In this document: positions 38,409-64,000 of the stretch, in pieces
Position numbering within the stretch: position 1 is the first letter of the stretch
Layout of the letters: every line of letters starts with the position of its first letter
Origin: Nitrospirota bacterium
GTDB taxonomy: Bacteria; Nitrospirota; UBA9217
Length of the DNA stretch: 64,000 nucleotides
NCBI GenBank assembly: GCA_963737155.1
Contig: CAVTRN010000002.1
Span: 2,592,001-2,656,000, forward strand
Direction of reading: 5' to 3'
Position numbers and translations under genes: made by a program
Notes under the pieces: model-generated
Seen by the model: only the letters and a program-made list of their open reading frames with translations
Database searches by the model: none
What the model was told of the DNA's origin: nothing

Positions 38409-38587
38409 AGTCTCTTCTCCCCATTCCATAAAATCTCCAAACGCCTCCTCTATGAGGAGTTCCCTCTTGCAAATAATTAATTCTTATGATATTTTAAGAA
38501 CGCTTAAAATAAAGTGTCAGAGCTCTTTGATCCTCGTGAATGCATTGTTCCGATCTTTTTTACTTAAGGAGCTTTATTTATAAACTT

Positions 38588-39205: not shown

Positions 39206-39209
39206 AATT

Positions 39210-39680: not shown

Positions 39681-39721
39681 ACACTCTGTAAATATGTCAA
39701 ATGCCGCGACTCAGGTCATTT

Positions 39722-45060: not shown

Positions 45061-45158
45061 GATCCAATTCTTAGCACGTTATTATCGAGGCTGTCAATGC
45101 CTTTCCGCACAAATTCCTTGCAATCCTCCATGCAAGGGCTTAAAATTCATTCTCTCGG

Positions 45159-46253: not shown

Positions 46254-46752
46254 TATTCCTCTGCATGTTACACCTAGCTTTTTTTCTGTTCCAAAGAAAA
46301 TGATCAGGTGGAAAAAGCAGTTCATGTCAAGTAAGATTGACATTAAAGCCGCTTCAGGATTCAGTTTAGGTAGCCACTCGATATAGAGTCATCCTTCTGA
46401 GACCTTATTATAGATTAACCCATTGAGATTGCATGCTTTTTATCCTTAACTACCTGCTTTAGCGACTCATATCCTCAGCTGTTTTGGGGCTACCTACAAT
46501 CATTACGGTAGGACCGCATTAAATAAGAAAAAGCATGGCTCGGTTTTAGAACGAATTTGTAATTAGTAAATCGTATTTTTCGCGCACGATAATACCATCC
46601 CCCGTCAAAATACTTTGGACCCGATTATAATAATCATGACTGACGTCAGCGGAAACAAACATAAATTTAATTCAGATTTTGACAAACTGCGAAAAATAAG
46701 TAATAATAGATTGGTTCCGTATCTACTGCCACACCATCGTTAAAGAGGATCG

Positions 46753-47457: not shown

Positions 47458-49207
47458 TCACGCAGAAAACCGCGGCATTTTCAAACGCACATTTATTATC
47501 TACGCTGCTATCCTGCTTCTGGCGGCGATTGCCGTCGAACTGTATATCCCTGATGCGGTCGGTGATAGTTATATTGCCGATCTCCAGAAAAATCTTGTAG
47601 CAGAAGCCAGGCTTATGTCAATCATGCAGCCGTTCAAGGCAACTCCACCACTCGACAATCTCTGCCGTCAATACAAGGAAAAAACAGGTGCAAGGACAAC
47701 AATAATAGCATTTGATGGAAAGGTTCTCGGCGACTCGGACACTGATTCAACCGGCATGGACAACCATGAGCATCGTCAGGAGATTCAGCAGGCAGGACTG
47801 AACGAAACGGGATCGGCTATCCGATTCAGCGACACGCTGAAGCATAATTCTCTATATGTGGCGCTGAAGGTCATGAACGGAAAACAACCGCAGGGCTTCA
47901 TCCGCCTGAGCGTGCCACTCACGGAAGTCGACCGGACCGTTAACCTGCTCAGGGTCAAGATCATCATCGTTTTACTGGTGGTCCTGCTAATGGCAGCCCT
48001 CTTTTCATTCCGGCAGTTAAATCGCGTCAGGAGATTAACAGACCGTATACAAGACTTTACCCGCAATGTCACCCGCGGAGAACTGGGGAAAAAATTTTTT
48101 ATAGAAAGCGCCGGAGAATTTGATGAGATCGCCGATAGCCTAAACAACATGTCCACTGAGCTGCTCAACAGCATCGCCGACAGCGAAGAGGAAAAAAACC
48201 GGCTCAATGTCATTCTCCGAAGCATCCCTGATGCGCTCTTCATCATCGATGCGAAAGGCGTCATTCTCATGGCGAGTTCGGCCGCAAACGATATGTTCGG
48301 AAGTCTCACATTTACGGGCAGGCCGTTCATCGAAGTGGTACGAAATAACGAATTTTTTTCACTGATCGAGCAGGTTCGCGAGCGCCACGAACCAGGGGTG
48401 ACTGAGTTTCCGATCGAGTATCCGGAAGAGCGGTACTGCGTCGTCAGGGTATCGCCGCTTATGTATCGCCGCGAAGACGTCCTGTCCGGCTTTGTGGCCA
48501 TCTTCCACGACATCACTCAATTGAACAAGCTAGAACAGACACGCAAGGATTTCGTCGCCAACATATCTCATGAGCTCAAAACACCGATTACCGCCATCAC
48601 AGGATTCGCGGAAACCCTGCTGGAAGGAGCGCTTGACGACAAACAGCATGCCATAAAATTCCTACAGACCATCAAGGCGAACAGCGAGCGAATTAATGGC
48701 CTCGTAGACGATCTCATGATGATTTCGAAAATCGAATTGGGCGTTATCAAAGTTATGAAAACGTCGGTCCGGTTCGCAGAAGTGGCCGAGAGCGTTCTGG
48801 CCATACTGAAAAACAAGGCCGTGGAAAAGAAACTATCGCTGACAATGTCGGTACAGCAGAACAGGGAGGTCATCCAAGCGGACCGGGATCGGCTTACTCA
48901 GATACTAACCAATCTTGTGGATAACGGGATCAAGTTTACCGAGCGTGGCGGCATCATATTTGGCACCGAAGAGGAGAACGGCAAGACCGTTATTTTCGTG
49001 GCCGACACCGGCATCGGCGTGCCACAGAAAAACCTGCCCCGACTTGGCGAACGGTTCTATCGCGTAGACGCCGGCCGTTCGCGGAACATGGGTGGCACCG
49101 GCCTCGGCCTCGCCATCGTCAAACATCTGGTGAAGGCGCATGGATGGGACTTACAGATCGAGAACAATACAGGGAAAGGGTTAAAGGTCAGGATTATCAT
49201 CCCGTGA
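47447..49207 (+). CDS. phoR: PhoR-like sensor histidine kinase (HAMP-PAS-HisKA-HATPase)
   Basis: RKDFVANISHELKTP, ERFYRVD..RSR..GGTGLGLAIVKH and a periplasmic DNHEHRQE motif. Confidence 0.82.
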   Translation: MSGNHAENRGIFKRTFIIYAAILLLAAIAVELYIPDAVGDSYIADLQKNLVAEARLMSIMQPFKATPPLDNLCRQYKEKTGARTTIIAFDGKVLGDSDTDSTGMDNHEHRQEIQQAGLNETGSAIRFSDTLKHNSLYVALKVMNGKQPQGFIRLSVPLTEVDRTVNLLRVKIIIVLLVVLLMAALFSFRQLNRVRRLTDRIQDFTRNVTRGELGKKFFIESAGEFDEIADSLNNMSTELLNSIADSEEEKNRLNVILRSIPDALFIIDAKGVILMASSAANDMFGSLTFTGRPFIEVVRNNEFFSLIEQVRERHEPGVTEFPIEYPEERYCVVRVSPLMYRREDVLSGFVAIFHDITQLNKLEQTRKDFVANISHELKTPITAITGFAETLLEGALDDKQHAIKFLQTIKANSERINGLVDDLMMISKIELGVIKVMKTSVRFAEVAESVLAILKNKAVEKKLSLTMSVQQNREVIQADRDRLTQILTNLVDNGIKFTERGGIIFGTEEENGKTVIFVADTGIGVPQKNLPRLGERFYRVDAGRSRNMGGTGLGLAIVKHLVKAHGWDLQIENNTGKGLKVRIIIP

Positions 49208-49689
49208 GGCGACGCTTCGCAGTGTGGCTGTGCGACATTCGCATCTATCGTGTTATCAATTTCGTCGTTTCGGGCTTAAGTCTGGGTCCCCCAATATGCT
49301 GATATATGCTGCTTTCACACTGAAAGGGATAACTAACCGATTATAAAAAGTTTTCAATCCCTTAGGCAGTGGGTCATAAACTTGAGACGGCAGAGAGAAT
49401 TCATTTGGCGCGGTTCTCTCCTACCGATCACCTTCAATCCGTTGCACGGCTTCTGAATATGTCCGGACCGGTCGGGATGCCGCGATAAAGTATTCCTGCC
49501 CAGTTCCATGAACAACATGAACAAGCAGAATCATTCATGCACCAGAAAAGATGCTGCCAACAGGTCGGTTCTCATCAGGTTCATGCGAGCCATCATATCA
49601 GGATTCCTGGCACATCCTGGCCTAAATCTGCAGAACATCGCGCGAACAAGTTGTAATTCCGTAGTAGAAGTGCTTTTTCATCTCAGTGT

Positions 49690-50259
49690 TTAAATCCACT
49701 TTATCTTCGGTTCCTTCTTGGCAGGACGCTGCGTCTCGCCTTTGGGATAACCAAGCAGAATGGGGCCGAAGATCGCGTCCCCTTCCTTTAATTCAAGGAG
49801 TCTCCGCACCTCCGGATCATCAGTCACCATAGCGCCAAAACCGACCCAGCAACTACCTAAACCCAGTGAATGCGCGGCAAGCATCATGTTTTCACATGCC
49901 AGAGGGCAGGAATGGCCCGCATACCTCCCGTCGCCAACGACGAAGACAATCGTGGGAGCGGAGTAATACACGGGATCCGGCAGCTCAGCATAGCGCTTTT
50001 TGATCATGGCATAGCGCTCCGGATCGACATCTTTCACTGCTTCCGTGATTTTTTTCGCTTGCGGCAGGGCAGCGCTGAGAAGCTTCCTCTTCGCCCCTTC
50101 GCCCTCCACCACGACGAACCTCCAAGGTTGGCTGTTCATAGCTGAGGGCGCCTCGTTTCCAGCCTCAAGAACTGTGTTCAGAATATCCCTTGAAATCTTC
50201 CGCACGTCATAGGACCGCACGGATCGCCTTTTTCTTATTGCTTCCAATACATCGTTCAT
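49690..50259 (-). CDS. Nitroreductase family protein
   Basis: RRSVRSY, APSAMNSQPW and LAAHSLGLGSCW. Confidence 0.93.
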   Translation of the reverse strand: MNDVLEAIRKRRSVRSYDVRKISRDILNTVLEAGNEAPSAMNSQPWRFVVVEGEGAKRKLLSAALPQAKKITEAVKDVDPERYAMIKKRYAELPDPVYYSAPTIVFVVGDGRYAGHSCPLACENMMLAAHSLGLGSCWVGFGAMVTDDPEVRRLLELKEGDAIFGPILLGYPKGETQRPAKKEPKIKWI

Positions 50260-50573
50260 GGCTTTCTCCTCCTTGCAGGACAGACATTATCGCGGCATTT
50301 ATTATTGATCCTACACTTTGCTAAAATTGTACCCATTATTTGAAAGTTGTCAATGGCTCAAAAAGGATGGTGCTGCGGATGGTGCATCAATCCCGTGATA
50401 AATAGCCACTGTTCCCGAAGCTTTAGATGGAAAGTACTACCATTGGTGTTGAGCATATCACGCTGGTGATCATTTGTCCACTAATTTGCAATAAAATCTC
50501 CTTCGATTGCTTCGCGACCGGTATGTCTTATCGCGCCCTGAAGAGACCGAGCTTTACGGCACAAGAGAACAGA

Positions 50574-50630
50574 TGTAACACAACTGTAACAATTCCGTAA
50601 CACTATTTTAATAATTTGAATTTATGATAA
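50574..50630 (+). promoter_or_regulatory. OmpR/PhoB-type box (11-bp-phased direct repeats) and -10
   Basis: TGTAACA(50574), TGTAACA(50585), CGTAACA(50596) and TTTAATA(50607), then TGATAAT. Confidence 0.7.
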
Positions 50631-50646
50631 TGATGTATTAAGAAAG

Positions 50647-50964
50647 GTGTCACAGGGGATGGTAACTTCAGATGAACTCAGGTGCCCGGTGTGCCGCTCG
50701 GAAGCGGTATATAAGTATGGCCACATCAAAACTGGGAAGCAGCGACTCAAATGCGTGCTTTGCGGAAGACAGTTTGTTCTCGGCTTTGCGCGAGGCGAAT
50801 TGAAAAATCGTCCTAACTGTCCTCAGTGCGGCCTGAAAATGCACCTGTATATGCACGACAAACAAGGGTTGCGATTCAGGTGCTCGGATTACCCTGCATG
50901 CAAAACCTATGAAAAAATTCCACACGAAAAGGAGGCAACGAATCATGAATTGTTATGTTCATAA
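50647..50964 (+). CDS. Double zinc-ribbon protein (InsA-like + topoisomerase-I-like C4)
   Basis: CPVC..KYG..TGKQRLKCVLCGRQF and CPQCG..M...CSDYPAC. Confidence 0.75.
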   Translation: MSQGMVTSDELRCPVCRSEAVYKYGHIKTGKQRLKCVLCGRQFVLGFARGELKNRPNCPQCGLKMHLYMHDKQGLRFRCSDYPACKTYEKIPHEKEATNHELLCS

Positions 50965-51316
50965 TGTCCCCGGAAGGTTGCGGATCAAAAATTCGTTGTT
51001 TAAGAATAGCGCCATACATTATGAGGTTCAAAAAACTCTCGTGAATATGGGCCATGGAATAGGTACGGCCGAATTCAATTCCACGACTGGCAGTCTTCTG
51101 ATTCATTATAATCAAGCGGAAATCCGGCACCAGGACATCCTGAGTACTCTCGAGCGGACCGGTTTTTATCATCCTGAGAAAACCGTGACCAACGATCAGG
51201 TGATTCATCAGGCAACCGCAAAGGCATTCAACATCGTCACCAAGGCGGTTACCGGCGCTTTTATCGAAACCGCGCTGCAGGGAACGGGGTTATCGTTCCT
51301 GGCAATATTATTGTAA
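50945..51316 (+). CDS. HMA2-domain protein (FezC-like)
   Basis: HNVPGRLRIK...NSTTGSLLIHY, a hydrophobic C-terminus and a GGAGG RBS. Confidence 0.8.
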   Translation: MNCYVHNVPGRLRIKNSLFKNSAIHYEVQKTLVNMGHGIGTAEFNSTTGSLLIHYNQAEIRHQDILSTLERTGFYHPEKTVTNDQVIHQATAKAFNIVTKAVTGAFIETALQGTGLSFLAILL

Positions 51317-51567
51317 CGGCCTATCCGGCCATTGTTTTCCCCGCCTTTTCAAGGAAGCGGCAGTGTTGCTGCCATTTCCTATCCTTTCCCTCTCAAACAA
51401 TAATCCAGAGAATTCAGAGATACATGCCGTCCTCTAAGACCGTAAAAACGTCAGGTCCTTTGATTGTTACTGATGATAATAGTTCACCTCGATCTTGCGT
51501 TTCTCTTTTTTTAAGAAATGCGTTAAGTGTCTCGACCCGCATCCGGCGCCGTTTGTGGATCACATAC

Positions 51568-52338
51568 TCATCCAACTTTGACAGCAAGATAATCGTAGAG
51601 CGGACGCTGAGGATCGTATATCATCGTGGACCGGTATACAAACCAATAGCCCAACCTCTCAAATGATGATTGTTGTTTCAGGAGATGAGAAACGCCAACA
51701 TCATTTTCCAGGGCCGAGGACAATTCCGAATTTGGCGAGAGCACAATCGGCGGTTGACCCGGTTGGCTCACGATGAGCACAGGAACAATCTGCAGGCCGG
51801 CAGGCGCGAAACCGGCCGCCGCCTGCCGTGCTTCCAGACGCACCATTCGCGCACGTGCTTCCGGCATCCCCGCCTCAATCGCCGTAGACACCCAATCCAG
51901 CAGGCGATTGCGCACATCGGCGATATCATCCGCGCCCGAAATCGCCTGGATACCTTCTTCTTTTTTAATGGCCGATACTAGCGCGGAGACCTCCTTGAGA
52001 TAAGCCACTTTTTGGGAATCAGGCACATAGTACATGACCACCAGGTGAACTTTTTGATCGTCGGGCGAACCATAATCGATCCCTGTAGGGCTCCAACCCA
52101 CCGCGCACCATAATTCTCCCACTCCGGCGGCACGCGTATGCGGGCAGGCCACTCCCAAACCGACCCCGGTGTTTCCCTCTCGCTCTCGAACCAGCACGTC
52201 CTCATCAACCTGAAGATGCCCCCCCAATTCTGGGATACCCTCGATGAGATGCGCAAGGTATCGCAATGATTTTTCTTTATCGCTGTCGGGAAGTTCCACG
52301 AGCCTGCCGTCCTTGAGCGCCGTCAAAAGACTTTTCAT
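51568..52338 (-). CDS. PTS EIIA (Ntr/Fru-type) domain protein with C-terminal extension
   Basis: RE...TGVGLGVACPH (phospho-His) and GIDYGSPDDQKVHL. Confidence 0.85.
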   Translation of the reverse strand: MKSLLTALKDGRLVELPDSDKEKSLRYLAHLIEGIPELGGHLQVDEDVLVREREGNTGVGLGVACPHTRAAGVGELWCAVGWSPTGIDYGSPDDQKVHLVVMYYVPDSQKVAYLKEVSALVSAIKKEEGIQAISGADDIADVRNRLLDWVSTAIEAGMPEARARMVRLEARQAAAGFAPAGLQIVPVLIVSQPGQPPIVLSPNSELSSALENDVGVSHLLKQQSSFERLGYWFVYRSTMIYDPQRPLYDYLAVKVG

Positions 52339-52340
52339 GC

Positions 52341-54989
52341 TTAATCGCCTCCGAATTTGCGAACAAACCAGGTTTTAACATTGTGCGTCAATGTTACATA
52401 GGCCACGAGCGTCACTGTGAGCCATAGCCAGTACATGGCGGGGAGCCTTACGAAACCAAAATAATCCGCCAGCGGCGAATACGGCAGGATGATTCCCACG
52501 GCCATGACGATGAGCGTGGTCAGCGTCAGGGCGGCGCTGGCCCGGCTCTGAATAAACGGTATTCGATTGGTGCGAATAACATGCACAATGAGCGTCTGGG
52601 TCAGAATTGATTCGACAAACCACCCCGTGTGGAAAAGACTCTCATAGTAGACTTTGGAATTATTCGACACCCCCGGAAGGGAGTAACGCGCGCAGTAAAA
52701 AACAAAAAGCATGAGGGCATAAGTCGTGTAGTCGAATACCGAGCTGGTGGGACCGATATACAGCATGAACCTTTTGATACTGTCAATATTCCAACGGCGG
52801 GGTTTTTCCAAAAATTCGTCGTCCACCTTGTCCGTCGGGATGCCGGACTGGGAAAGATCGTACAGGAGGTTATTTACGAGCACCTGAATCGGGGCCATAG
52901 GAAGAAAAGGCAGGAATAGGCTGGCTCCGACGACACTGAACATATTGCCGAAATTGGAGCTTGCGCCCATTTTAATGTATTTGATGATGTTGCCGAATAC
53001 TTTACGACCCTCTATGGCCCCCTGTTCCAAAACGGAAAGGTCTTTTTCAAGGAGGATGATGTCTGCCGATTCCTTGGCCACATCGACAGCGGTATCCACG
53101 GAAATACCCACATCTGCGGCCCGCATAGCAGGCGCATCATTTATTCCATCCCCCAGAAATCCGACAACATGGCCGCCCCGATGCATGGCGCGAATGAGCT
53201 GCTCTTTCTGAAACGGCGATAAACGGGCAAACACGGTGGATTTTTCCGCTATCTCCGTCAGCTCATCATCGCTGAGGCCGATAAGCTGCGGACCGGTTAC
53301 AATTCCCTCAACTTCCAAGCCAACATCCCGGCACACTTTCCGCGTCACAAGCTCATTGTCCCCAGTGAGTATCTTAGTGGATACACCCACACGACGCAAT
53401 TCCGCCACTGCCTTGAGGGCGGAATCCTTCGGGGGATCAAAGAAGGCGACATAGCCTAAGAGTATCAAACCGGCTTCATTCAGAGCGGAAAATACCTGCT
53501 GGGTCTTGGGAAACTCACAGTACGCTATTGCCAGGACCCGGTATCCGTCCGCGCTCAGAGCCCGATACTCTTCCATTAGATCTTTTTTAAGCATCCCGAT
53601 GAGAGGATGAATTTCTTCATCAACCTGGTAGTGGTCGCAGACAGTGAACATTTCCTCCACTGCTCCCTTACAGATGAGCACATGGGCATCTTCATAATCG
53701 ATGATCACCGACATCCGTTTCCGCGAAAAGTCAAAAGGGATTTCGTCAACCTTCCGGCAGGTACGCTCGACATCAAGTTCTCCGTGTTCGAGGATGGCCC
53801 GGTCTAGCAAGTTGCGCAGGCCTGTCTGGTAATAGCTGTTCAGATATGCATAGCGAAGAACATCATCGCTTTGGCGGTTTGTTACATCGACATATTTTTC
53901 AAGTACGACGCGGTCCTGAGTAAGCGTGCCGGTCTTGTCCGTGCAGAATACGTCCATAGCTCCGAAGTTCTGAATGGCGTTGAGTCTCTTGACGATTACC
54001 TTCTTTCTTGACATCGCGAGCGCCCCTTTGGACAGATTGACCGTCACAATCATAGGGAGCATCTCCGGGGTAAGACCGACGGCTACGGCAAGGCCGAACA
54101 ACAGCGCCTCCATCCAGTTATGTTTCGTGATGCCAATAATGAGGAAAACCACCACCACCATTATGACCATGAAGCGAATCATCAGCCAAGTGAATGCATT
54201 AATTCCCTTGTCAAAATTTGTCAAGACGCGCAGGGAAGCAAGATTCTTTGAAATTGAACCGAAATATGTTCTGTTGCCTGTATTGACCACAAGCCCACGT
54301 GCGGACCCGCTTAGAACGTTGCTCCCCTGAAAGCAGGCATTTATTAATTCCAAAGCGTTCTGAGCGGACTTGGGTGCAGGGGCAGCCATTTTTTCGACAG
54401 GCATCGACTCCCCGGTAAGCACTGACTGGCTTACGAAAAAATCCTTGGTGCTCAGTAGGCGCAAATCGGCCGGAATCATGTCCCCTGCCGCCAGAATAAC
54501 GATATCACCGGGGACCAATTGGTCCATGAGAAGCTCTGTTTCTTTTCCCCCACGCAGCGCGACACAGGTCGTGCGCACCATAGCTTGAAGTTTTTCCACC
54601 GCGCGGCCCGCCCGTGATTCCTGATAGTAACCGAGCCCCACGCTCAGGAGGGCCATAGCGCCGACCATAATCGTCGCTCGGAGATCACCCATGGCGAAGG
54701 AGACCGCTGCGATGGCCAGAAGCTGAACAACAAGAGGGTTTTTACAGCGCTGATAAATTTCTCGAAGAAAACCCATTTTTTTGTGATTGGCAGTTGCATT
54801 CCAGCCGAAGCGTGTCCGCCGGTCATGCACCTCATCGGCGTCCAATCCCTGCTCTGATACGCCGGCCGCCGTAAGAGCCTCCTCCGGAGTGAGAGCACAG
54901 ATAGCGAGAAGATCCTGCTCGCCCTGAGTCATCTCAGTGGGCTTCGCTGTAAATTTTTTAGAAGAGATTTTCTGCATCATAGATAACAT
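52341..54989 (-). CDS. mgtA: Mg2+-importing P-type ATPase (P3B)
   Basis: AVGLTPEMLP, DKTGT, PFDF.RKRMS, SSNFGNMFS, NNLLYD and FHTGWFVES. The exact start is uncertain. Confidence 0.95.
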   Translation of the reverse strand: MLSMMQKISSKKFTAKPTEMTQGEQDLLAICALTPEEALTAAGVSEQGLDADEVHDRRTRFGWNATANHKKMGFLREIYQRCKNPLVVQLLAIAAVSFAMGDLRATIMVGAMALLSVGLGYYQESRAGRAVEKLQAMVRTTCVALRGGKETELLMDQLVPGDIVILAAGDMIPADLRLLSTKDFFVSQSVLTGESMPVEKMAAPAPKSAQNALELINACFQGSNVLSGSARGLVVNTGNRTYFGSISKNLASLRVLTNFDKGINAFTWLMIRFMVIMVVVVFLIIGITKHNWMEALLFGLAVAVGLTPEMLPMIVTVNLSKGALAMSRKKVIVKRLNAIQNFGAMDVFCTDKTGTLTQDRVVLEKYVDVTNRQSDDVLRYAYLNSYYQTGLRNLLDRAILEHGELDVERTCRKVDEIPFDFSRKRMSVIIDYEDAHVLICKGAVEEMFTVCDHYQVDEEIHPLIGMLKKDLMEEYRALSADGYRVLAIAYCEFPKTQQVFSALNEAGLILLGYVAFFDPPKDSALKAVAELRRVGVSTKILTGDNELVTRKVCRDVGLEVEGIVTGPQLIGLSDDELTEIAEKSTVFARLSPFQKEQLIRAMHRGGHVVGFLGDGINDAPAMRAADVGISVDTAVDVAKESADIILLEKDLSVLEQGAIEGRKVFGNIIKYIKMGASSNFGNMFSVVGASLFLPFLPMAPIQVLVNNLLYDLSQSGIPTDKVDDEFLEKPRRWNIDSIKRFMLYIGPTSSVFDYTTYALMLFVFYCARYSLPGVSNNSKVYYESLFHTGWFVESILTQTLIVHVIRTNRIPFIQSRASAALTLTTLIVMAVGIILPYSPLADYFGFVRLPAMYWLWLTVTLVAYVTLTHNVKTWFVRKFGGD

Positions 54990-55964
54990 CCTGAAAATTC
55001 TTGTTAATAAATCCGGATTGGGAACCTGGCGTTTACATGGTAATCTCCAATAATACAATTGTCAATCAGTGAATATCACGCATGCCTACCTGGAATGGAG
55101 TATTATGAAAAAAAACCATATATCACCCCTTACTTATTTGATCAGTCAATACACCGCGGCAAGCTAACGACGGAGTATAGGAGTATAAAGGAAGAGCGTT
55201 CAACTGAGAAACCTGCGGTTTCTCTTACTCTTCCCTCTGTAAAGTAACGCCGTATTGCAAACAACAATTTTAAGGCCAGTTCCTCCCAGGCCGGCCATGC
55301 AGCGTATACATGGTTCTTTCGCGATTACAGATAAATAAAAGAGCGCCGGGGGCAGCTTTCGGTGCTCTATCCTAACTTCCCTCACAAACACTCCCAGCCT
55401 TTTGAGCGGGATGACTAAGGTAACGGAAATTTAATGCAACCGTCATGTCCCTGTAAACTCATTGTCGTATTCTTTTAGATAAAAAGGAGGGGCTTTCTCA
55501 TGTTAAATGGGTAGTGATTGCAAGTTTGTTAAGTTTAGGTTGGAAAATCGATGGCATGAAATACCGTAAATCCAATGATTTTAAACTATCATCTGCATGC
55601 TTAAAAGGTACGTTAGACTACAGCAAGGCGGTCTACCCATTTGAGATGAGAAAGAACCAAAAAAGATTACATCAGCAGCTGCGATGGGCTCAATTTATTT
55701 TCCTACTCATTCTAATCACCGGAGGTGTCCAAGAATGGATCCGCGATATAGGGTTGAATATGTATGTCCGAATTGTGATAAGTCGTATCAGATTACCTGC
55801 CCGGAGGTCGTGGAATTATGCAGCTGCGGCGCTGAACTACAAAAAGCGTCGTAGAAGCCGGGCAACGAATGCGAGACACGGTCACTTCGTGACAGACAAT
55901 GCGTACCGACGCGACGCAGGTTAGTTCCCAGCATCTTTTCTATTAATCAGTAATCCCGCCAGTT

Positions 55965-56222
55965 TTAGAATTCACGGGAACGGCATCTCCTGCCTTCTAT
56001 ATCACAGGGCGACCTTGTGTCTTTTATCAACTCCTTGACTCGTTTGGTGACGAGCGCCGAGAGAAAGTGCTTGTTTCTCGCCGTCTTCATATAGTGTCTG
56101 AGAACCATCGCATAAAGAGTTTTAACGCTTTCCGTGGAATGATTTAGACTCTTCGCCAGATTCTCGACAGCAACCTGATGATTACGTTCCACAGAGTGAT
56201 CAAAAACCATCTTGTTGTTCAT
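55965..56222 (-). CDS. DUF3562-like small helical protein
   Basis: AVENLAKSL...VKTLY...ARNKHFLSALVTKRVKELI. It has an AAGGGG RBS and is a paralogue of 63760-63987. Confidence 0.65.
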   Translation of the reverse strand: MNNKMVFDHSVERNHQVAVENLAKSLNHSTESVKTLYAMVLRHYMKTARNKHFLSALVTKRVKELIKDTRSPCDIEGRRCRSREF

Positions 56223-56798
56223 GCCGTGCCCCTTCCTTCACTGGCCGGGGCCATCGAGTCTTATTCCGGCTAGTGATTGTAAACAACCGACATCAGAGCG
56301 CTGAATACGCCTTGCGCGGCTCTTGCCATACCCTGCGATATATATACATCGAAAAAACAGCATTTCCTCCGACACAGATATTTCAACATCCTAATAGAAT
56401 TCCGCCCACGCCCCTATTCAGCTTGATCCGACCCTTTTAAGCAGTAGAATCCTTTCCGACGACAAACCCCAACTGATCATGTCTATGACACTCCGTATGT
56501 CGTGGAGCGTGCGGCAACAATAATCCGATACGTTGTCAGTGCCGATCTTGGCAGGATTTCCTTCCATTAGGATCAGCATGCAATCTATGATCAAGAAACA
56601 GGCAGACGCCCAATGAGGATCCCGGCTACTGAATCGACGAACCAGCAATAAGTATAGCGAATTATGAGTGCTGTGCAGATAACGCCTGCAAAGCCGGAGT
56701 ATCGTTCATGATCTGACTGGTCTCATTTTTTTATTTCACACTACGCCTCGATCCTCAGCATGTCACAACCGCGCTTCTGAACAGCGCCTGACTTGCTG

Positions 56799-57998
56799 CT
56801 ATTCCTTGAGGAGAGCGGCCTTGTCCGTTAACTCCCAAGGGAGACCGATATCCATTCTCCCTACCTGTCCGTAAGCTGCGAGTTTGCGATAAAACCCACC
56901 CTTGACCTGGGACGGCAGATACCGCAGATTGAACTGACGAATGATCCCCGCCAGCCGAAAATCGAAATATTTCTCCACCAGGTCGGCTATCTTTTCATCG
57001 GGCATAACTCCGGTCCCGAAGGTTTCCACCTGCACGCTTACGGGACGCGAAAAACCGATTGAGTAGCTGAGCTGAATTTCGCAGGACGCAGCCAGTCCCG
57101 CCGCAATCACATTTTTCGCCGCATAACGCGCGGCGTAAGCCCCGGTCCGATCAATGCGTGAAGGGTCTTTGCCGGTCAGCGCGGACCCGCTGTGGCGTGA
57201 ATATTCTCCATAGGTATCAATCGCGTTTTTCCTTCCCGTGAGCCCCGAATGCACCGAGGGGCCGCCGTGGATGAAGGTGCCTTCCGGATTAACGAAAATT
57301 CTCGTTTTTTCGTCCGGCTTTATCAACTCGTCCTGGAAAGCCGTATTGATTACTGCCTCCTGGATATCATCAGAGAGCTTTTTCTCATTCGGTCCGCCTT
57401 TCTCCGAAGAGCGTTCCTGGCTTGCAATGACTGTAATGCTGTGAATGCGGGAGGGGCTGCCATTCCGGTATTCAACGCCCACTTGCGTTTTTCCGTCAGG
57501 CGCGAGATAGGGCAAGATTTTCTGGAGCCTTACTGCCGTTAGCCTTCGGGCAAGCCGGTTTGCGAGCCATATGGGAAGAGGCATGAATGCCGATGTCTGA
57601 TTGCAGGCGAAGCCGAAGACTGTAACCTGGTTCCGCACGAGGACCCGTTCGAGCTCGTCCTCCGCCATCGTCCGCTCATCGACAACTCTCCGAACGCTGT
57701 CAGGAAACTCCTTGAGGCTTGTTATTACGCTGCAGGTCTTGGAATTGAACGCCTGTTGATCATATCCGACCTGATTAATGACCTGACGGGCGATATTCGC
57801 GAAGTCGGCCCTGACAGGCGAAGAAAACCGCGCCGCGATAAATACGATGGCCGTTGCAACCGCGCATTCGGCGATAATTTTTGCAAAAGGGTCCTGCTGA
57901 AGGAAATGATCTACGATAGCATCGCTGATGACGTCACACAACTTGTCAGGATGGCCTTCCGTCACCGATTCCGAGGTAAACATGAAATCTTTTTTCAT
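56799..57998 (-). CDS. metK: Divergent S-adenosylmethionine synthetase (MetK) paralogue
   Basis: TSESVTEGHPDK, DGKTQV, GLTGRK, DTYG, GKD and AAYG are retained. GAGDQG, GEIT and GDxG are altered. Confidence 0.85.
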   Translation of the reverse strand: MKKDFMFTSESVTEGHPDKLCDVISDAIVDHFLQQDPFAKIIAECAVATAIVFIAARFSSPVRADFANIARQVINQVGYDQQAFNSKTCSVITSLKEFPDSVRRVVDERTMAEDELERVLVRNQVTVFGFACNQTSAFMPLPIWLANRLARRLTAVRLQKILPYLAPDGKTQVGVEYRNGSPSRIHSITVIASQERSSEKGGPNEKKLSDDIQEAVINTAFQDELIKPDEKTRIFVNPEGTFIHGGPSVHSGLTGRKNAIDTYGEYSRHSGSALTGKDPSRIDRTGAYAARYAAKNVIAAGLAASCEIQLSYSIGFSRPVSVQVETFGTGVMPDEKIADLVEKYFDFRLAGIIRQFNLRYLPSQVKGGFYRKLAAYGQVGRMDIGLPWELTDKAALLKE

Positions 57999-58163
57999 CT
58001 GAGATTGCCTTTCTCCAGAACTCTTCCCCCCTTGAGGAGGGAAAAATTCAAAGATAATGGTGAAGTCTCTCGAAAGCCGGACAATCTTTGATTTTCATTT
58101 CCCCCATGAACGCCGGTATAAGAGATTAGATGATACCTAATCCTCACTCTGCATTAGGCACGA

Positions 58164-61100
58164 TCACATAACCGCGTCTACCCGGAAGTTTTCCGGCACC
58201 CTGGTCGCGACCGGGGAATCGCTCTCCTTCGTCTGCTTCGTAATAGATCGTGTTTTTGTTCCTTCATTAATGAGAAGCGGCACAATCGCGCTCCCTATTG
58301 CGATTACGGCGTCCACCGGACCCATCGGGCTCAACCCGAGAAACTGGCGAAGGCCCGGGATGAACATGGTCGCAGTCTGGATCCCGAGGGAACCGGCAAG
58401 GGCCGCGGTAAGATACTTGTTCGTTGCAAGCTGGTCAGAACTGAATATGCTGTGGGTTTCGGAACGGCAGCTGATCGCGTGCAAAAGCTGTCCCGTACAG
58501 AGGCTCATGAAGGCCATGCTTCCCGCCTCAGCCCCCTGTCCATATCGTGTGAGTCCATAACCATAGGCCGCCAAGGACCCCGCGGAAATAGTGGAAGCCT
58601 CAAAAAGAATCCGCTTGAAGTCCCCAGATTTGATAATCGGTTCATTCGGATCGCGCGGAGGCCGGGACAGGATATCGGGCTCCGGTGGTTCAAGGGCGAG
58701 CGCCAGTCCGGGGAAAATATCCGAGATCAGGTTAATCCAGAGAAGCTGCATAACATTCAGCGGCTGTCCCATTCCGCCCGCCATCGCGGTAAACATCACT
58801 ATGATTTCGCTCATGTTTGTCGCAAGAAGGAACCGGACTGATTTTCTGATGTTGTTATAGACTGTTCGGCCCTGACTGATAGCGATCACCATGGTTTCAA
58901 GATTATCGTCCTCCAGGACGACATCTGCCACCTCTCTCGCCACATCGGTGCCTGTGTGACCCATGGCAATGCCAATATCGGCCGCTTTGAGCGCTGGTCC
59001 ATCGTTGATGCCGTCGCCAGTCATCGCCACAACCTTACCGGCTGATTGAAGCGCTTGGACGATCTGGAGTTTGTTTGCCGGGCTTACCCGGGCAAAGACT
59101 TGGACCCGTCCCGCAAGAGCCGACAAGACTTCCGGTTCCATCTGAGAAAGGTGGCTCGAATCCAAGATTTCCAGCTCTTCGTCCTTGTTCAGGTTGAGTT
59201 CCTTCCCGATAGCGTAGGCCGTTGTTCCCTGGTCGCCGGTAATCATAACCGTATCAATCCCCGCGCGATGAAAAGTCCCTATGAGGCCCTTTACGCCAGC
59301 GCGCACAACATCCGCCATGCCTACCAGCCCGACCCAGATAAGCCCTTCTTCAAAGTCGTCACCGTGGTTCAGCCCGACCTCATCGCCCAAGGCATAGCAG
59401 ACCGCGAGCACGCGGAGCGCATCACCGGCCATCCGTTCATTTTCCTTGTCCAGCATTTCGCGCGCACGGTCATCAAGAATAAGTCTTTCACCATCCCTGA
59501 GATACCATTTACACAGGGAGAGAACTTCGGAAGGACTTCCCTTGAGAGCCAGCAACCGCTGTCCCTCGTCGGCGCGATGAAGCGTGCTTACGTAAGGACG
59601 GTCTTCCGAGCGATGGTTGATTTTGATCAGCGAGTACTGAGACCGGAGCGCATTGACGTCGATGCCGGCCGCAAGCGCCATGTGCACCAGGGCATTTTCC
59701 GTTGAAGAACCCTGAACCGAATATTCTCCTTCCTGTCTCGATACTGTTGATTCATTGCAGAGAACTGACAGGTGGATAAGGCGGAGAAGTTCATCGTCAG
59801 AGTAGGGATTAACGGTCATACCGTCGGCGGAAATCCTACCGTCGGACACCGTAAAACAGCGCATGCCGGCATGGATCTCGACGACCGACATGCGGTTCAT
59901 GGTAATAGTCCCGGTTTTGTCAAGACAGATGGTCTGAACGGCCCCGAGAGCCTCCACGGCGTCAAGGTGACGAATAAGAACATTCAATTCCCGCATACGC
60001 CTGATTCCGAGCGCCAGCGTTGTCGTCGCTATGGTCGGCAGCCCCTCGGGAACAGCGGCAACAGCGAGTGCAATGGACGTTTTAAGCATTTGGAGAAAAC
60101 CATAGCCGCGCAGCAGTCCGATGATGAACACGATGCCGCATACCGCACCGCTGATGATGACTAGCTGAACGCCCATTCTGTCCATTTGCCGTTCCATGGG
60201 CGTCTCTGGAGGACGCGCTGTCTCCACAAGAGTCTGTATCTTTCCCATCTCCGTATAGCGACCTGTCGCCACAACGACAGCAAGGCCCTGCCCTCCCGTG
60301 ACGAGGGTGCCCATATACACCATGTTGGTTCGATCGCCAAGCGGGATATCGAACGCCTGAAGCTTTTCCCTTGTTTTCATGACCGGCATGCTCTCGCCGG
60401 TCAGCGCCGATTCGTCGACACTAAGATAGTTCAAGTCCAGGAGACGTGCGTCGGCGGCCACATAGCTGCCGGGCCTGAGCACGAGCAGATCTCCCGGCAC
60501 TACATCTTTGGCGTCGATATCCCGTAGTGTATTGCCGCGGATGACCGTTGACACCGGCCGCACAAGGCTCTTTAGCCCGTGAATAGTTTTTTCCGTCTGT
60601 CTTTCAGTCGTATACCCGATTGCGGCATTAATCATAACAACGCCAAGGATCACGGCAGCATCGGCGATACCACCCGTGAAGACGGATATGCCCGCGGCTA
60701 CCCCGAGAAGGCCGACGGGAAGGGATTTGAATTGGCCGAAGAAGATGCTCCACCCTGAGCGGGGCACCGATTCCGGCAAAAGGTTAGGACCGTATTGGGC
60801 TGCGCGCCTCAAAGCGGATTCTTGAGACAGACCTACTGAACTGGAAGCATCCCATTTATGCAAGACCTCTTGCTCTGTCATGCAGTGCCAAAGGTCTTCA
60901 GACTGTCCCTCAGCATGAACGACTTGCGACCTTACTTTTCGCAGGCTCGGATCTTTCCCCGCTGCTTGCGGATATGCCGGAGGCGCAACACCGAGGGCAA
61001 GCCGAGAATCGCGGTTGCGCGTGACAGTCGAACCAGAACCGGCGCGATGCGTCCCTTTCTCTATCCCACCTGCGGGAGAGTCCGTTGGGAGATTTTCAAC

Positions 61101-61328
61101 GATCGCTTTGAGGAGTCCGGCCATGACCGATTCATGATTGCCATTGCCGTTCTTCGTATCGTACAATATGAGAACCGAGCCCGTCAGAGTGTTGACGGAA
61201 ACATTGAGAACCCCTGCATACTGAACAAGACCTTGCTCAATACGCTTTTTCAATGATTCCGAACGATAAAGCCCCCTAACTTTATAACGGACACGCCCTT
61301 TAACCGCGGCATGAACGGTCTCAACCAC
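58164..61328 (-). CDS. Ca2+-type (P2A) P-type ATPase with N-terminal HMA2 domain
   Basis: N-terminal HAAVKGRVR...NTLTGSVLILY, then TGES, VAAVPEGL, DKTGT, GDGIND, TM5 ATNMSE and TM6 LWINLISD. Confidence 0.92.
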   Translation of the reverse strand: MVETVHAAVKGRVRYKVRGLYRSESLKKRIEQGLVQYAGVLNVSVNTLTGSVLILYDTKNGNGNHESVMAGLLKAIVENLPTDSPAGGIEKGTHRAGSGSTVTRNRDSRLALGVAPPAYPQAAGKDPSLRKVRSQVVHAEGQSEDLWHCMTEQEVLHKWDASSSVGLSQESALRRAAQYGPNLLPESVPRSGWSIFFGQFKSLPVGLLGVAAGISVFTGGIADAAVILGVVMINAAIGYTTERQTEKTIHGLKSLVRPVSTVIRGNTLRDIDAKDVVPGDLLVLRPGSYVAADARLLDLNYLSVDESALTGESMPVMKTREKLQAFDIPLGDRTNMVYMGTLVTGGQGLAVVVATGRYTEMGKIQTLVETARPPETPMERQMDRMGVQLVIISGAVCGIVFIIGLLRGYGFLQMLKTSIALAVAAVPEGLPTIATTTLALGIRRMRELNVLIRHLDAVEALGAVQTICLDKTGTITMNRMSVVEIHAGMRCFTVSDGRISADGMTVNPYSDDELLRLIHLSVLCNESTVSRQEGEYSVQGSSTENALVHMALAAGIDVNALRSQYSLIKINHRSEDRPYVSTLHRADEGQRLLALKGSPSEVLSLCKWYLRDGERLILDDRAREMLDKENERMAGDALRVLAVCYALGDEVGLNHGDDFEEGLIWVGLVGMADVVRAGVKGLIGTFHRAGIDTVMITGDQGTTAYAIGKELNLNKDEELEILDSSHLSQMEPEVLSALAGRVQVFARVSPANKLQIVQALQSAGKVVAMTGDGINDGPALKAADIGIAMGHTGTDVAREVADVVLEDDNLETMVIAISQGRTVYNNIRKSVRFLLATNMSEIIVMFTAMAGGMGQPLNVMQLLWINLISDIFPGLALALEPPEPDILSRPPRDPNEPIIKSGDFKRILFEASTISAGSLAAYGYGLTRYGQGAEAGSMAFMSLCTGQLLHAISCRSETHSIFSSDQLATNKYLTAALAGSLGIQTATMFIPGLRQFLGLSPMGPVDAVIAIGSAIVPLLINEGTKTRSITKQTKESDSPVATRVPENFRVDAVM

Positions 61329-61379
61329 GTATCTCCCCCCTTTCGGACACGAGAACCGATCTGGTGTATGCCACGATTC

Positions 61380-62120
61380 CTACGCGGGAGGCTTGGTTTT
61401 CGGAAGGGCTGTGCTGGCTACCTCCTTTACCCCTTCAACAACGCCGACTAGCATATCCTTTACCGCTTTGACTGCCGTGTTGCCGATCGCTGATGCGGCA
61501 TCAACTGCTCCTGTTACGGCGACCTTAGCCACTTCTTCGGCATTTCCCCCAACTTCCTTCGTGGCTTCAATCACGCCGTCCACAGCCCGACGAGCCACCA
61601 TCGCCACATCTGCGCCGACTTCAGCCGCCCCTTTAACAGCACCCCTAACGGTGGATCCCGCAACAGCGATCACATCGCCGCCCACATCGCTCACGCCCAT
61701 GACCACGCCTTTTGCGACGCTCTTGGTGCTCAAGATCAGGCCAGTGCCGACCTCCTCCGTTGCCTGAATGGCCCCCTTGATCACATCCTTTGTAATAACC
61801 ACCGCCTCGCCGGCAACGCTGCCAGTTGCACGAAGGGCATTGGATACGGTGTTCCGGACAAGGCTCACGATTTCTGCCTCTATCTCATTGATGCCCTTGA
61901 GACTGCTGACGACACCTTCCTTTACCGTAGTCCCCGCCTTGCCGATTTCCTCTGATGATGCCGGATTGCCTGTGGGCTCTGCGCTTGTCATTGGTAAGCC
62001 TCCTGTAATAGTAATATCCTCTGTAGTAGTAATTTCATCCTTTGACGATTGAATGCGCGGCCGTCGTGTCACAGTCGCTTTCCTTTTCGGTTTTTGCTTG
62101 TTGTCATTCATGTCTTTCAT
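61380..62120 (-). CDS. Gly/Ala/Val-rich protein with tandem 22-residue amphipathic repeats
   Basis: At least five in-register 22-mers (xGxxxxxxEVG...). An alternative start at 61991 has a GGAGG RBS. Confidence 0.8.
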   Translation of the reverse strand: MKDMNDNKQKPKRKATVTRRPRIQSSKDEITTTEDITITGGLPMTSAEPTGNPASSEEIGKAGTTVKEGVVSSLKGINEIEAEIVSLVRNTVSNALRATGSVAGEAVVITKDVIKGAIQATEEVGTGLILSTKSVAKGVVMGVSDVGGDVIAVAGSTVRGAVKGAAEVGADVAMVARRAVDGVIEATKEVGGNAEEVAKVAVTGAVDAASAIGNTAVKAVKDMLVGVVEGVKEVASTALPKTKPPA

Positions 62121-62297
62121 GTCTTTTCTCCTGGATCAATCCGAAAAAGTAAGGAGGGACTGCAAACACGGTATGCTAAAGACTTCTGAAGGCTTTCTTA
62201 GAAAATGAGAGTAAGTATCACAAGAATGTTTTCGTTAGGATCGAATGGAAAACCCCAACCGACCCCAAGCTCTCAAAAAGGCCATCTGCCCGCTCTG

Positions 62298-62783
62298 CTA
62301 CTTTTCCGGATCTTTCGACTTTAAGAAAATATTGAATGCGTACCACAATGCTCCATACCAAGGGATCGCGCCTGCATTCCCGTTAAGAATCTGAAAGCCA
62401 CCCACTCCTAGCAGCACAACGGTTGCCACACCTCCCATGTTCATTTCGCCATCGGTCAGACTCTTGATCTTGCTATCAATGCCCCTGAACATCTCGGTGA
62501 CATTCTCGTGAAAATTCCCAGAACTCATACCCTTAACATGCGGTTGTTCCCTCAAGACAAAAATATCTTTCGTTCGCGCGTAATCAGCAATGGCGGCAAT
62601 GCTCGTTTGATGCAGCAAAAGTATGCTCCCCGTGGTCGCATTCACCTCCACCGCGGTAATACCGGGGCACTGTGCCAACTGCTCCTTACACACCGCAAGC
62701 GCTCCCCCATCGCCTTTTAAAACGGTGATCTTTACCCGGAACCGTCCCGGCGTGTTATGTGCCACCACTGCATCCCGTATCAT
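62298..62783 (-). CDS. HMA2-domain membrane protein (FezC-like)
   Basis: HNTPGRFRVK...NATTGSILLLH, a C-terminal Gly-rich TM and PWYGALWYAF. Confidence 0.82.
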   Translation of the reverse strand: MIRDAVVAHNTPGRFRVKITVLKGDGGALAVCKEQLAQCPGITAVEVNATTGSILLLHQTSIAAIADYARTKDIFVLREQPHVKGMSSGNFHENVTEMFRGIDSKIKSLTDGEMNMGGVATVVLLGVGGFQILNGNAGAIPWYGALWYAFNIFLKSKDPEK

Positions 62784-63091
62784 GACGCCGGTGACTCATC
62801 CGGCGACGCTGCAACCGCCGCCGTCGCAACCGGTGCTGCAGCGGCAACTGCTGCTTCGGATAGCTCCGCCTTTGCTTCGGCCACAATATCCTCGGTTATT
62901 TCAGCGACCTCGGCAAGAGTTTCCTTGCCGCGCTCATACAGCTGTATTCCTCCCTTGATCGCCGCTTTCGCCAACGGTTTAGCGATATTTGCAAACAAAG
63001 GTATTACGACGGGCGCTAATATTGCAGCCCCTATCCCGATAGCCAAGCCGGTAACCATGTTCCCCTTCAAACCATCGTCTAAAAGTGCCAT
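62780..63091 (-). CDS. DUF5132-family GxxxG protein (FezA-like)
   Basis: GLAIGIGAAILAP...KPLAKAAIKGG...EDIVAEAKAEL. It has an AAGGAG RBS and an ATGA overlap with the next gene. Confidence 0.85.
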   Translation of the reverse strand: MALLDDGLKGNMVTGLAIGIGAAILAPVVIPLFANIAKPLAKAAIKGGIQLYERGKETLAEVAEITEDIVAEAKAELSEAAVAAAAPVATAAVAASPDESPAS

Positions 63092-63396
63092 GCTATAATC
63101 TCCTTTCGCTGTAGAAATTGTAGTCTTTTCCTTAAGCCCTGTCTATTTTCTCTTTCATTACATACCTAACTATATCATAAAATGAATGGATCTCTCATTA
63201 TGCCTAGTCGTGAGGAAGAATGTTCGTTCTTTTATTTTACCGATCATTGGCCATAACTGATTGGATAATCAAGAGTATCAGAATGAAAATCACTGGAAAT
63301 GATTGCGCAGTTGGTGCAGCGATCGCTGCGTGAAAAGGGCTACCATCCTTCAACTGTATTTCAGTAAATCTTCCCTACAGGCTGTATTTCTACATA

Positions 63397-63436
63397 TGTC
63401 ACAGACTTTTCTGCATTTTGTAATATTGCTGTAACA
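63397..63436 (+). promoter_or_regulatory. Second OmpR/PhoB-type phased repeat box
   Basis: TGTCACA(63397), TGTAATA(63419) and TGTAACA(63430), all in 11-bp register. Confidence 0.55.
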
Positions 63437-63475
63437 TTGCCATATTATAGTTTTAGAGAAAAGAGTGAGGTGAAC

Positions 63476-63682
63476 TTGTATATATCGCAATCAATTCTCA
63501 TCGAAAGTACAAAAGCGGCAGGCGTTCACACGTTCATGTGCCCCTACTGGGCTGCGGAAAGCAGATTCTGTCCAGCATCGATCATGACGGTCGATATCGA
63601 TATGCGTCGAAAGGCACACTATTGCTGTACGGAGAATTACGATTGCTGCCCAATGTTCCTCGCAAAAATTCTTCGAGGGTAG
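63476..63682 (+). CDS. Small Cys-rich protein
   Basis: GAGGTG RBS plus TTG start, and CPYW..C.AS...YCCTENYDCCPMFLAK. Confidence 0.65.
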   Translation: MYISQSILIESTKAAGVHTFMCPYWAAESRFCPASIMTVDIDMRRKAHYCCTENYDCCPMFLAKILRG

Positions 63683-63759
63683 AAAAATGGTGGGCGATCC
63701 CGGAGATTATCGGTAACCATAATATATATAATATTAGGTGGAGTTATAAGGAGATATGC

Positions 63760-63987
63760 ATGAATCAAGAGACTACAACGCCATCCCGCGTGTTTCGCAA
63801 TGAAAAGGAAGTTGATCAGCATTCCCGCGCCATTCAAAAACTTGCGGAGGAGCTTCAACTGCCGGCTGATGAAATTCGGCGGCATTACACGGCTGTTCTA
63901 GATGTTTTGAAACAGGAAGCCAAGATAAGAGCCTACCTCCCGGTCCTTGTCAGCCGGAGCGTAAAAGAACGACTGCGGCATCGCTGA
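63760..63987 (+). CDS. DUF3562-like small helical protein
   Basis: AAGGAG RBS and AIQKLAEEL...AKIRAYLPVLVSRSVKERL. Confidence 0.72.
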   Translation: MNQETTTPSRVFRNEKEVDQHSRAIQKLAEELQLPADEIRRHYTAVLDVLKQEAKIRAYLPVLVSRSVKERLRHR

Positions 63988-64000
63988 TGGAGAGATTACG

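Follow-up and report, generated by a model that had tools for sequence, protein, structure and literature searches.

Does a metK homolog that lies beside a calcium-type P-type ATPase still make S-adenosylmethionine (SAM), or has it been put to another use? The question is raised by a 64,000-nucleotide (nt) stretch of the Nitrospirota bacterium assembly GCA_963737155.1 (contig CAVTRN010000002.1, positions 2,592,001 to 2,656,000), referred to here in its full length as the window, and by one gene within it, whose product we call MetK2. The original prediction, made from the letters alone, held that MetK2 had kept the ATP-, tripolyphosphate (PPPi)-, and Mg-binding residues of MetK, had lost those that bind methionine, and served an adjacent ATPase cassette rather than acting as the housekeeping SAM synthetase; tripolyphosphatase, PPPi generation, and adenosyl transfer to another acceptor were its candidate activities. 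Each of the proposed checks that could be made by computation bore the prediction out. Comparison across genomes, metagenomes, and protein collections places MetK2 in an uncharacterised, widespread subfamily of MetK fold whose active site has been rebuilt and whose partner is a P-type ATPase, and it probably does a different job from making SAM. The reading developed below, that MetK2 is not a SAM synthetase and would instead be a soluble partner of the pump that binds and probably cleaves triphosphate, is given a probability of roughly 45%.

All three S-AdoMet synthetase domains (PF00438, PF02772, and PF02773) were matched in MetK2 with E values of 6e-34 to 6e-53, and phmmer matched it to PDB structures of MetK at an E value of about 1e-94. 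An AlphaFold model with 44 relatives in the alignment had a mean predicted local distance difference test score of 80.5, and its best PDB matches were all MetK, with a template modeling score of 0.83; the loop at residues 250 to 276 was of low confidence, as might be expected of a site that is completed only in the dimer. In an alignment that included the annotated K-12 record and the genome's own canonical MetK, MetK2 was 43% identical to E. coli MetK. Its TIGR01034 score of 365.2 bits passes the equivalog threshold of 309.4 bits, with 234 bits separating it from the canonical MetK of the same genome (599.5 bits), and source databases name its relatives S-adenosylmethionine synthetase. The passed threshold and the database name both favor a simple explanation, in which MetK2 would still be a SAM synthetase, a divergent isozyme that provides SAM locally or under special conditions.

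Such an isozyme is very improbable given the other methionine adenosyltransferases (MATs) in these genomes. The window genome (100% complete, 2 contigs) has a canonical metK about 330 kb from the MetK2 gene and directly adjoining ahcY (adenosylhomocysteinase, 643 bits). All five other MetK2 genomes tested (Nostoc, Nitrosospira, Fischerella, Desulforhabdus, and Brocadia) hold both types, with canonical copies scoring 537 to 615 bits and paralogs 358 to 416 bits; Fischerella has two paralogs. An evenly drawn sample of 151 genomes from the phylum was then scored, with a MetK2 match defined as at least 550 bits and at least 60% identity (the next best match reached 343 bits and 47%). MetK2 was present in 21 genomes and as a fragment in one more (G043). 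A canonical second match was found in 20 of these 22 genomes, and some second MAT in 21, the additional one being G152 (86% complete), which is without canonical metK and encodes an archaeal-type MAT (645.6 bits versus a cut-off of 557) 5 kb from MetK2 (L179, L193; G152:C70). In the last genome, G128, a congener of G152, neither a canonical nor an archaeal-type MAT was found, which favors a SAM-making MetK2; set against this, G128 is only 89% complete and its congener has the archaeal-type enzyme. This one Nitrospirota genus (G152 and G128) is apparently without bacterial metK. No SAM-using enzyme recurs in the cluster around MetK2, a further point against local SAM supply.

In the MetK reaction, the sulfur of methionine displaces PPPi from ATP, and PPPi is then hydrolysed. 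We take H14, D16, E42, R244, K245, K265, K269, and D271 to be the metal (Mg2+/K+) and triphosphate residues, with H14 presumably the proposed acid catalyst of C5'-O5' cleavage. Residues are numbered here as in E. coli MetK without Met1, in agreement with the residue names in the available text of PMC1282579, which gives the methionine ligands as Gln98, Asp238, and Glu55 and the adenosine ligands as Asp163, Arg229, Phe230, and Ser99. Alignment of the window MetK2 to the E. coli enzyme and to the genome's own canonical MetK showed the motifs GHPDK, PDGKTQV, LTGRK, TGKDP, and IDR to be kept, so that the GHPD, DGKTQV, GRK, GKD, and DR signatures initially picked out by eye as the surviving ATP/PPPi/Mg site are all present. 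Every methionine-site change described at the same time was also found, along with D118N: GGEITT reads AARFSS (E55R), KQSPDI reads EFPDSV (Q98 is F or absent, the exact register being ambiguous), GAGDQG reads LVRNQV (G117R and D118N), GPMGDCG reads GPSVHSG (D238H), and SKVD reads SRID (K269R and V270I). All three published methionine ligands are replaced.

The same substitutions extend across the relatives of MetK2. In a set of 81 sequences (the window protein, 79 of the 80 genome loci described below, and the second Fischerella copy; L081, with no open reading frame [ORF] of at least 250 residues, was omitted), D238H, K269R, F262L, and V270I each occurred in all 81, G258S in 80, E55R and G117R/K in 71 each, and D118N in 64, and position 98 was occupied by L, M, F, or V. 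Residues D16, K17, E42, K245, and K265 were kept in 81 of 81 sequences, R244 in 80, H14 and D271 in 79 each, and K165 in 67 (Trp in 11). Among 75 diverse canonical MetKs, E55, Q98, D238, and K269 are invariant, which argues against SAM synthesis by a protein that has changed all four; of the 59 columns at least 95% conserved in those canonical proteins, MetK2 keeps 39 and changes 13 (A40, G54, E55, Q98, I102, A116, D118, G120, H189, D238, G258, G260, and K269). The pattern is far beyond chance and is conserved rather than a product of drift or decay: H238 and R269 are invariant in 81 relatives, and these proteins fall in one clade. These alignments indicate that the Mg2+/K+/triphosphate half of the MetK site has been kept, with K269 as Arg, and that the methionine half has been reshaped into a pocket of more basic and hydrophobic character (E55R, Q98 to L/M/F/V, G117R/K, D118N, and D238H). 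Altered methionine or triphosphate residues were also seen in six proteins outside the H238/R269 clade (P0165, P0175, P0243, P0249, P0179, and P0207), and further degenerate or repurposed MetK lineages may exist.

The adenosine pocket of MetK2 appears to be partly remodelled as well. D163 is kept in 77 of the 81 sequences and F230 in 60, and R229 has become P, L, A, V, or T, S99 is Pro in 65, T227 is Asp or Glu in 73, and S186 is hydrophobic. This record bears on a rather unlikely alternative, in which MetK2 would be an adenosyltransferase for another acceptor, binding ATP, moving its 5'-deoxyadenosyl group, and releasing PPPi. The acceptor would be an anionic or uncharged nucleophile at the methionine position, such as a thiol- or thioether-carboxylate or an inorganic anion, and the product would serve the pump. 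Such a reaction would make use of the kept H14 and the mostly kept D163 and F230, and the exchange of the two acidic residues for the methionine ammonium group for Arg and His, with a third basic residue at position 117, fits a change of acceptor to one that has no amino group. The loss of S99 and R229, the acidic residue at 227, and the hydrophobic residue at 186 speak against it, and the cassette contains no recurrent gene that would use an adenosylated product, nor do the data allow an acceptor to be named. Our tentative preference is for action on triphosphate or polyphosphate over donation of an adenosyl group to a new acceptor.

A search of 5.8 billion proteins returned more than 120 clusters at 74 to 89% identity to MetK2, and a scan of species-representative genomes returned 80 loci at 60 to 92% identity. 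The hosts of these loci are Nitrospirota, Cyanobacteria, Brocadiales, Geobacter, Syntrophorhabdales, Syntrophobacterales, Desulfobacterales, Nitrosospira, one gammaproteobacterium, and one Acidobacteriota metagenome-assembled genome. Scores from phmmer separate the two types cleanly, with paralogs at 529 bits or more and canonical copies at 419 bits or less. Another 16 full-length proteins, 40 to 56% identical and drawn from 1.84 billion representatives, carry H238 and R269 with variable residues at 55, 98, 117, and 118. In a FastTree phylogeny (LG model, 192 tips, 380 columns, 3 gappy rows removed), all H238/R269 proteins together with P0124 (H/H) and P0135 (N/R) formed one clade of 98 tips with a support of 1.0, and the 81 close relatives formed a subclade with a support of 0.94. 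By these measures MetK2 is a distinct, ancient, and strongly conserved MetK-fold clade marked by His238 and Arg269, in line with the separate clade that had been proposed. Combined with the second canonical copy and the replaced methionine ligands, this placement supports the original claim that MetK2 is not the housekeeping SAM synthetase, which we now consider very probable.

No sister group of the clade was supported when the tree was rooted on E. coli. The higher phmmer scores to cyanobacterial MetK (414 to 419 versus 297 to 331 bits) are not mirrored in the tree. No MetK2-type gene was present among PLSDB plasmids, where only canonical metK at 47% identity or less was found, and a metagenome scan with five query sequences yielded nothing close to the most divergent proteins with H238 and R269 (P0132 to P0134 and similar). 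Many long MetK homologs with intein and LAGLIDADG domains (PF14890 and PF14528; within P0278 to P0345) are canonical and unrelated to MetK2. Literature searches found no paper on the MetK2 clade; the literature on the CoBaHMA family, discussed below, could mention it.

MetK2 is tied to the ATPase gene. In tblastn searches with the window proteins, this gene lies directly upstream of MetK2 on the same strand at 78 of the 80 genome loci, and at the two others (L036 and L063) MetK2 begins at nt 27 and 22 of the contig. The metagenome scan added 80 loci, of which 38 were canonical and 42 carried the H238/R269 signature; the ATPase was upstream on the same strand at 37 of the 42 signature loci and at none of the 38 canonical loci, and at three of the five misses (L101, L118, and L131) the contig contains no upstream DNA. 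Within the phylum sample, ATPase orthologs (at least 57% identity) occurred in exactly the same 22 of 151 genomes as MetK2 and were adjacent to it in 21, and ordinary P2 ATPases (40% identity or less, without the N-terminal domain) occurred in many other genomes. The distance from the ATPase stop to the MetK2 start has a median of −4 nt, which we read as an ATGA overlap, and is 30 nt or less at 81 of 103 loci, compared to 165 nt in the window. Pairwise distances within the MetK2 and ATPase sets are correlated (r = 0.83 over 66 loci, with none of 999 permutations as high), with MetK2 evolving more slowly than the ATPase (mean pairwise distance, 0.32 versus 0.43). These counts, together with a DUF5132 gene at 54 of the 80 genome loci, uphold the proposed link of the clade to a P2A-type ATPase and DUF5132, and Pfam confirmed both as neighbors in the window. 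MetK2 is tightly coupled to the CoBaHMA calcium-type pump in the genome and apparently in translation, and a functional coupling of the two proteins is highly likely.

Coupling this tight also invites an explanation without catalysis, in which MetK2 would be a pseudoenzyme subunit whose former triphosphate site serves solely to sense ATP, PPPi, or polyphosphate, the subunit itself gating the ATPase or acting as its scaffold. Strict co-occurrence and an overlapping stop and start are expected of fixed-ratio subunits, and the stronger conservation of MetK2 than of the pump fits constraint on many surfaces. Three singleton long ORFs that join ATPase and MetK2 domains (P0272, P0273, and P0292, one with HMA_2 and one from Richelia) might be added to this list; each is without parts of both genes and is a single sequence on a single contig, probably reflecting deletions or assembly errors, and they were dropped as support. 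What makes a pseudoenzyme unlikely is the near invariance of the triphosphate-chemistry residues and of the new H238, as a module used only for binding would tolerate more change.

The ATPase itself has an N-terminal HMA_2 domain (PF19991) along with the Pfam domains Cation_ATPase_N, E1-E2, Cation_ATPase, Hydrolase, and Cation_ATPase_C. Its scores fall below all NCBIfam equivalog cut-offs, the best being the PMR1-type Ca-ATPase (612 bits; cut-off, 798) and the SERCA type (532 bits; cut-off, 703). The N-terminal HMA_2 domain was detected in 80 of 84 partner ATPases, with contig ends or a frameshift accounting for the 4 misses, and its alignment contains a conserved His6, Gly11-Arg12, and Arg14. 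Across 83 linked ATPases, DKTGT, TGES, TGD, and GDGIND are conserved, as are PEGL in transmembrane helix 4 (TM4), N..E in TM5, and N..D in TM6; we take PEGL, the TM5 Asn/Glu, and the TM6 Asn/Asp to be calcium-site residues as in SERCA. At least 90% of the 83 have Arg (residue ~573; window positions 59580 to 59640, minus strand) in place of the Phe of the PF(D/E)S motif in the nucleotide-binding domain, a Phe that presumably stacks on adenine in ordinary P2 ATPases. Listeria LMCA1 keeps this Phe, as do 10 of 10 ordinary P2 ATPases from the same phylum. This Arg was considered as a sign of dependence on MetK2 and ruled out: it is also found in the ATPases of two genomes whose clusters have no MetK2 (G103 and G085), and therefore it marks the CoBaHMA-ATPase group.

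Under the triphosphate reading, MetK2 would be made from the same operon as the ATPase, often with translational coupling, would no longer make SAM at a useful rate, and would still bind, and probably cleave, a triphosphate. Candidate substrates are free tripolyphosphate, short polyphosphate, or the triphosphate of ATP displaced by a nucleophile other than methionine. MetK2 would work alongside the pump as its soluble partner in a membrane system of DUF5132, HMA_2, and repeat proteins, and the recurrent pst and pho neighbors may point to combined calcium and phosphate handling by that system. A pstSCAB cluster, with pstS, pstC, pstA, and pstB each an NCBIfam equivalog above cut-off, lies within 10 kb of the cassette at 14 of 80 genome loci (L011, L016, L020, L021, L027, L032, L072, L029, L030, L067, L022, L069, L080, and L083) and 5 of 42 signature metagenome loci (L098, L126, L129, L132, and L133), compared to 0 of 38 canonical loci. 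The hosts are several Nitrospirota groups, Brocadia, Syntrophus, a deltaproteobacterium, and Magnetominusculus.

Several observations weigh against this reading. The TIGR01034 score (365 versus 309 bits) means that the hidden Markov model alone does not exclude SAM synthesis, and, with its adenosine contacts half kept, MetK2 may or may not bind ATP. The missing second MAT of G128 has been described above. Two metagenome loci break the pairing with the ATPase: L100 has a shortened MetK2 and 2.6 kb of unrelated upstream DNA without the usual ATPase, and L127 has no usual ATPase upstream and a different P-type ATPase, 30 to 38% identical, downstream. In G103 (L180 and L194; G103:C19) and G085 (L192; G085:C26), a cluster without MetK2 contains a 45%-identical ATPase, the repeat protein, HMA_2 genes, and the zinc-ribbon gene paired with HMA_2, so the pump system can work without MetK2, and MetK2 is a frequent accessory of the cassette, not a universal core part. 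A minority of loci have pst nearby, and the 14 genome loci include many close relatives and so represent fewer independent events. The argument also leans on the roles we assume for the metal and triphosphate residues and on mutants that Taylor and Markham are said to have described in 1999, in which SAM synthesis by D118N and D238N of E. coli MetK reportedly fell about 1,000-fold and tripolyphosphatase activity less than 35-fold; a literature search for the D118N data found no paper containing D118N.

The features of the cassette are collected in the table.

Features of the MetK2-ATPase cassette and its surroundings, in window coordinates
Feature	Coordinates	Strand	Basis
Double zinc-ribbon protein, 105 aa, precedes small HMA_2 gene	50647..50964	plus	zinc-ribbon Pfam at/below cut-off; 35/80 loci
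Second small HMA_2 protein, 135 aa, convergent to operon	50909..51316	plus	PF19991 1.8e-7; 44/80 loci
DUF3562-like protein, 85 aa, downstream of MetK2	55965..56222	minus	DUF3562 E 4e-4, below cut-off
MetK2 (MetK-fold paralog, H238/R269 clade), 399 aa, ATG start	56799..57998	minus	Pfam, TIGR01034, key residues, AlphaFold
P2-type (Ca-type) P-type ATPase, N-terminal HMA_2/CoBaHMA-like domain, 1054 aa	58164..61328	minus	Pfam, NCBIfam, motifs, synteny
p246rep, 246-aa Gly/Ala/Val-rich repeat protein	61380..62120	minus	no known family; homolog in 51/80 loci
HMA_2 protein, 161 aa, CoBaHMA-like domain and hydrophobic C-terminal hairpin	62298..62783	minus	PF19991 2.2e-15; 53/80 loci
Small DUF5132 membrane protein, 103 aa; putative operon starts with its gene	62780..63091	minus	PF17195 3.5e-14; 54/80 loci
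Candidate sigma-70-like promoter upstream of DUF5132 gene (tentative)	63117..63145	minus	10/12 hexamer matches

The repeat protein p246rep had no Pfam or NCBIfam match, and its protein-cluster relatives are all named "hypothetical protein." The PF19991 match of the 161-residue HMA_2 protein spans profile positions 10 to 153 of 154, and a DUF3562-type ORF cluster occurs at 25 of 80 loci, mostly just downstream of MetK2 and on the same strand. The arrangement of the cassette varies across hosts. For example, the gene before the ATPase in cyanobacteria is DUF5132 fused to the C-terminal part of HMA_2, and in Nitrosospira the accessory genes lie on the other side and on the opposite strand; the cassette set therefore survives rearrangement. 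A promoter scan returned 13 sites versus 8.2 expected, so the match upstream of the DUF5132 gene is weak, and promoter and terminator counts overall were near the shuffle expectation. Rfam gave no match at an E value of 0.1 or less within window positions 44000 to 64000, so that neither the 165-nt gap before MetK2 nor the region preceding a nearby mgtA gene is accounted for by a riboswitch; no M-box or other Rfam element was found ahead of mgtA. A look for sequencing runs with this stretch listed seven, all of DNA from soil or peat with shares of 0.37 or less, and none of RNA.

That mgtA-type Mg2+ ATPase gene (1,117 bits) and a phosphotransferase system EIIA-like gene lie between MetK2 and the zinc-ribbon/HMA_2 pair (51568 to 55058, minus strand). 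They were considered as parts of the system and rejected, being shared only with the two nearest relatives (L009 and L075), with a third mgtA in L083; the pair looks like a lineage-specific insertion. Phosphate-related genes are also seen in the window, where PhoB-like and PhoR/PnpS-like genes, both below the NCBIfam cut-off, lie 7.6 to 11 kb from MetK2 (46753 to 49207), and short ORFs with broken frames, resembling a decayed PiT phosphate transporter, come after a PhoU_div (DUF47) gene (38540 to 39725). One Nitrospirota subgroup (L060:13855-15702, L011:16392-17627, and relatives) has an OlsF-like amino-lipid synthase gene near the cassette (402 bits; cut-off, 620), as well as acyltransferase genes and an HpnI-like glycosyltransferase gene that is below cut-off. 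In other bacteria, membrane-lipid genes similar to these respond when phosphate is limiting. A resolvase-domain gene (289 to 858) and a Mutator-family transposase gene (10394 to 11662) lie at the window's far end, with no link to the cassette seen.

For genome annotation, these results suggest that more than 120 clusters at 90% identity, from at least six phyla, are probably misnamed S-adenosylmethionine synthetase, and that genomes may be credited with a second SAM synthetase that is not present. For enzymology, the triphosphate reading, if true, would mean that the two steps of the MetK site have been separated in nature, the half that handles triphosphate being preserved and the methionine half given a new role; to our knowledge, such a separation is otherwise documented only for mutants made in the laboratory. 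In transport, the link between MetK2 and the ATPase is as tight as for known pump subunits. No P-type ATPase is known to us to be partnered by a MetK-fold protein, and literature searches likewise gave none. Because CoBaHMA and DUF5132 are families without known function that adjoin the marker gene for intracellular calcium-carbonate formation in cyanobacteria, an assayable MetK2 could offer a way in. A more speculative scheme, to which we attach little credence, would make MetK2 a stoichiometric soluble subunit of a new P-type pump complex, for which inorganic tri- or polyphosphate, rather than simply ATP, would provide the energy or the control. As part of that scheme, an ATPase with Arg in place of Phe would be fed or gated by a MetK-fold triphosphate enzyme, and in many phyla the cassette would form or maintain intracellular deposits of calcium phosphate or calcium carbonate.

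Three known systems frame these proposals. Compared to bacterial MetK (TIGR01034; E. coli; the PDB 1RG9/7LL3 family), MetK2 has the same three-domain fold and conserved metal and triphosphate residues, whereas the methionine ligands E55, Q98, and D238, along with D118, have become a conserved Arg, a hydrophobic residue, His, and Asn, and K269 has become Arg. MetK2 also differs in a gating loop that is about 5 residues longer and in a 7-residue insertion, LPxxxKGG, near the C terminus, both common to the clade, and in being a second copy tied to a P-type ATPase. Compared to the P2A Ca2+-ATPases (PMR1 and SERCA; Listeria LMCA1, PDB 6ZHF), the partner shares the catalytic and ion-site motifs and has LMCA1 as its best PDB match, and it differs by its extra N-terminal HMA_2/CoBaHMA-like domain and by Arg in place of the N-domain Phe.

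The closest parallel to the small proteins of the cassette is the neighborhood of ccyA, which encodes calcyanin, in Microcystis. CoBaHMA is described in the available text of PMC8890360 as having a conserved His and basic residues, and the N-terminal domain of the partner ATPases shows these residues too. In Microcystis, according to the accessible portion of bioRxiv 10.1101/2024.07.07.602159, ccyA and a gene for a Ca2+/H+ exchanger have DUF5132 and CoBaHMA genes on their flanks, some of them coexpressed with ccyA. No calcyanin turned up around MetK2, where no search aimed at calcyanin was made. The ccyA neighborhood, which is linked to intracellular amorphous CaCO3, has a Ca2+/H+ exchanger as its transporter, and those portions of the sources mention no MetK-like gene and no P-type ATPase there. 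Common to both is that the same types of small protein, DUF5132 and CoBaHMA with a C-terminal helical hairpin, adjoin a Ca2+ transporter (bioRxiv 10.1101/2024.07.07.602159; PMC8890360).

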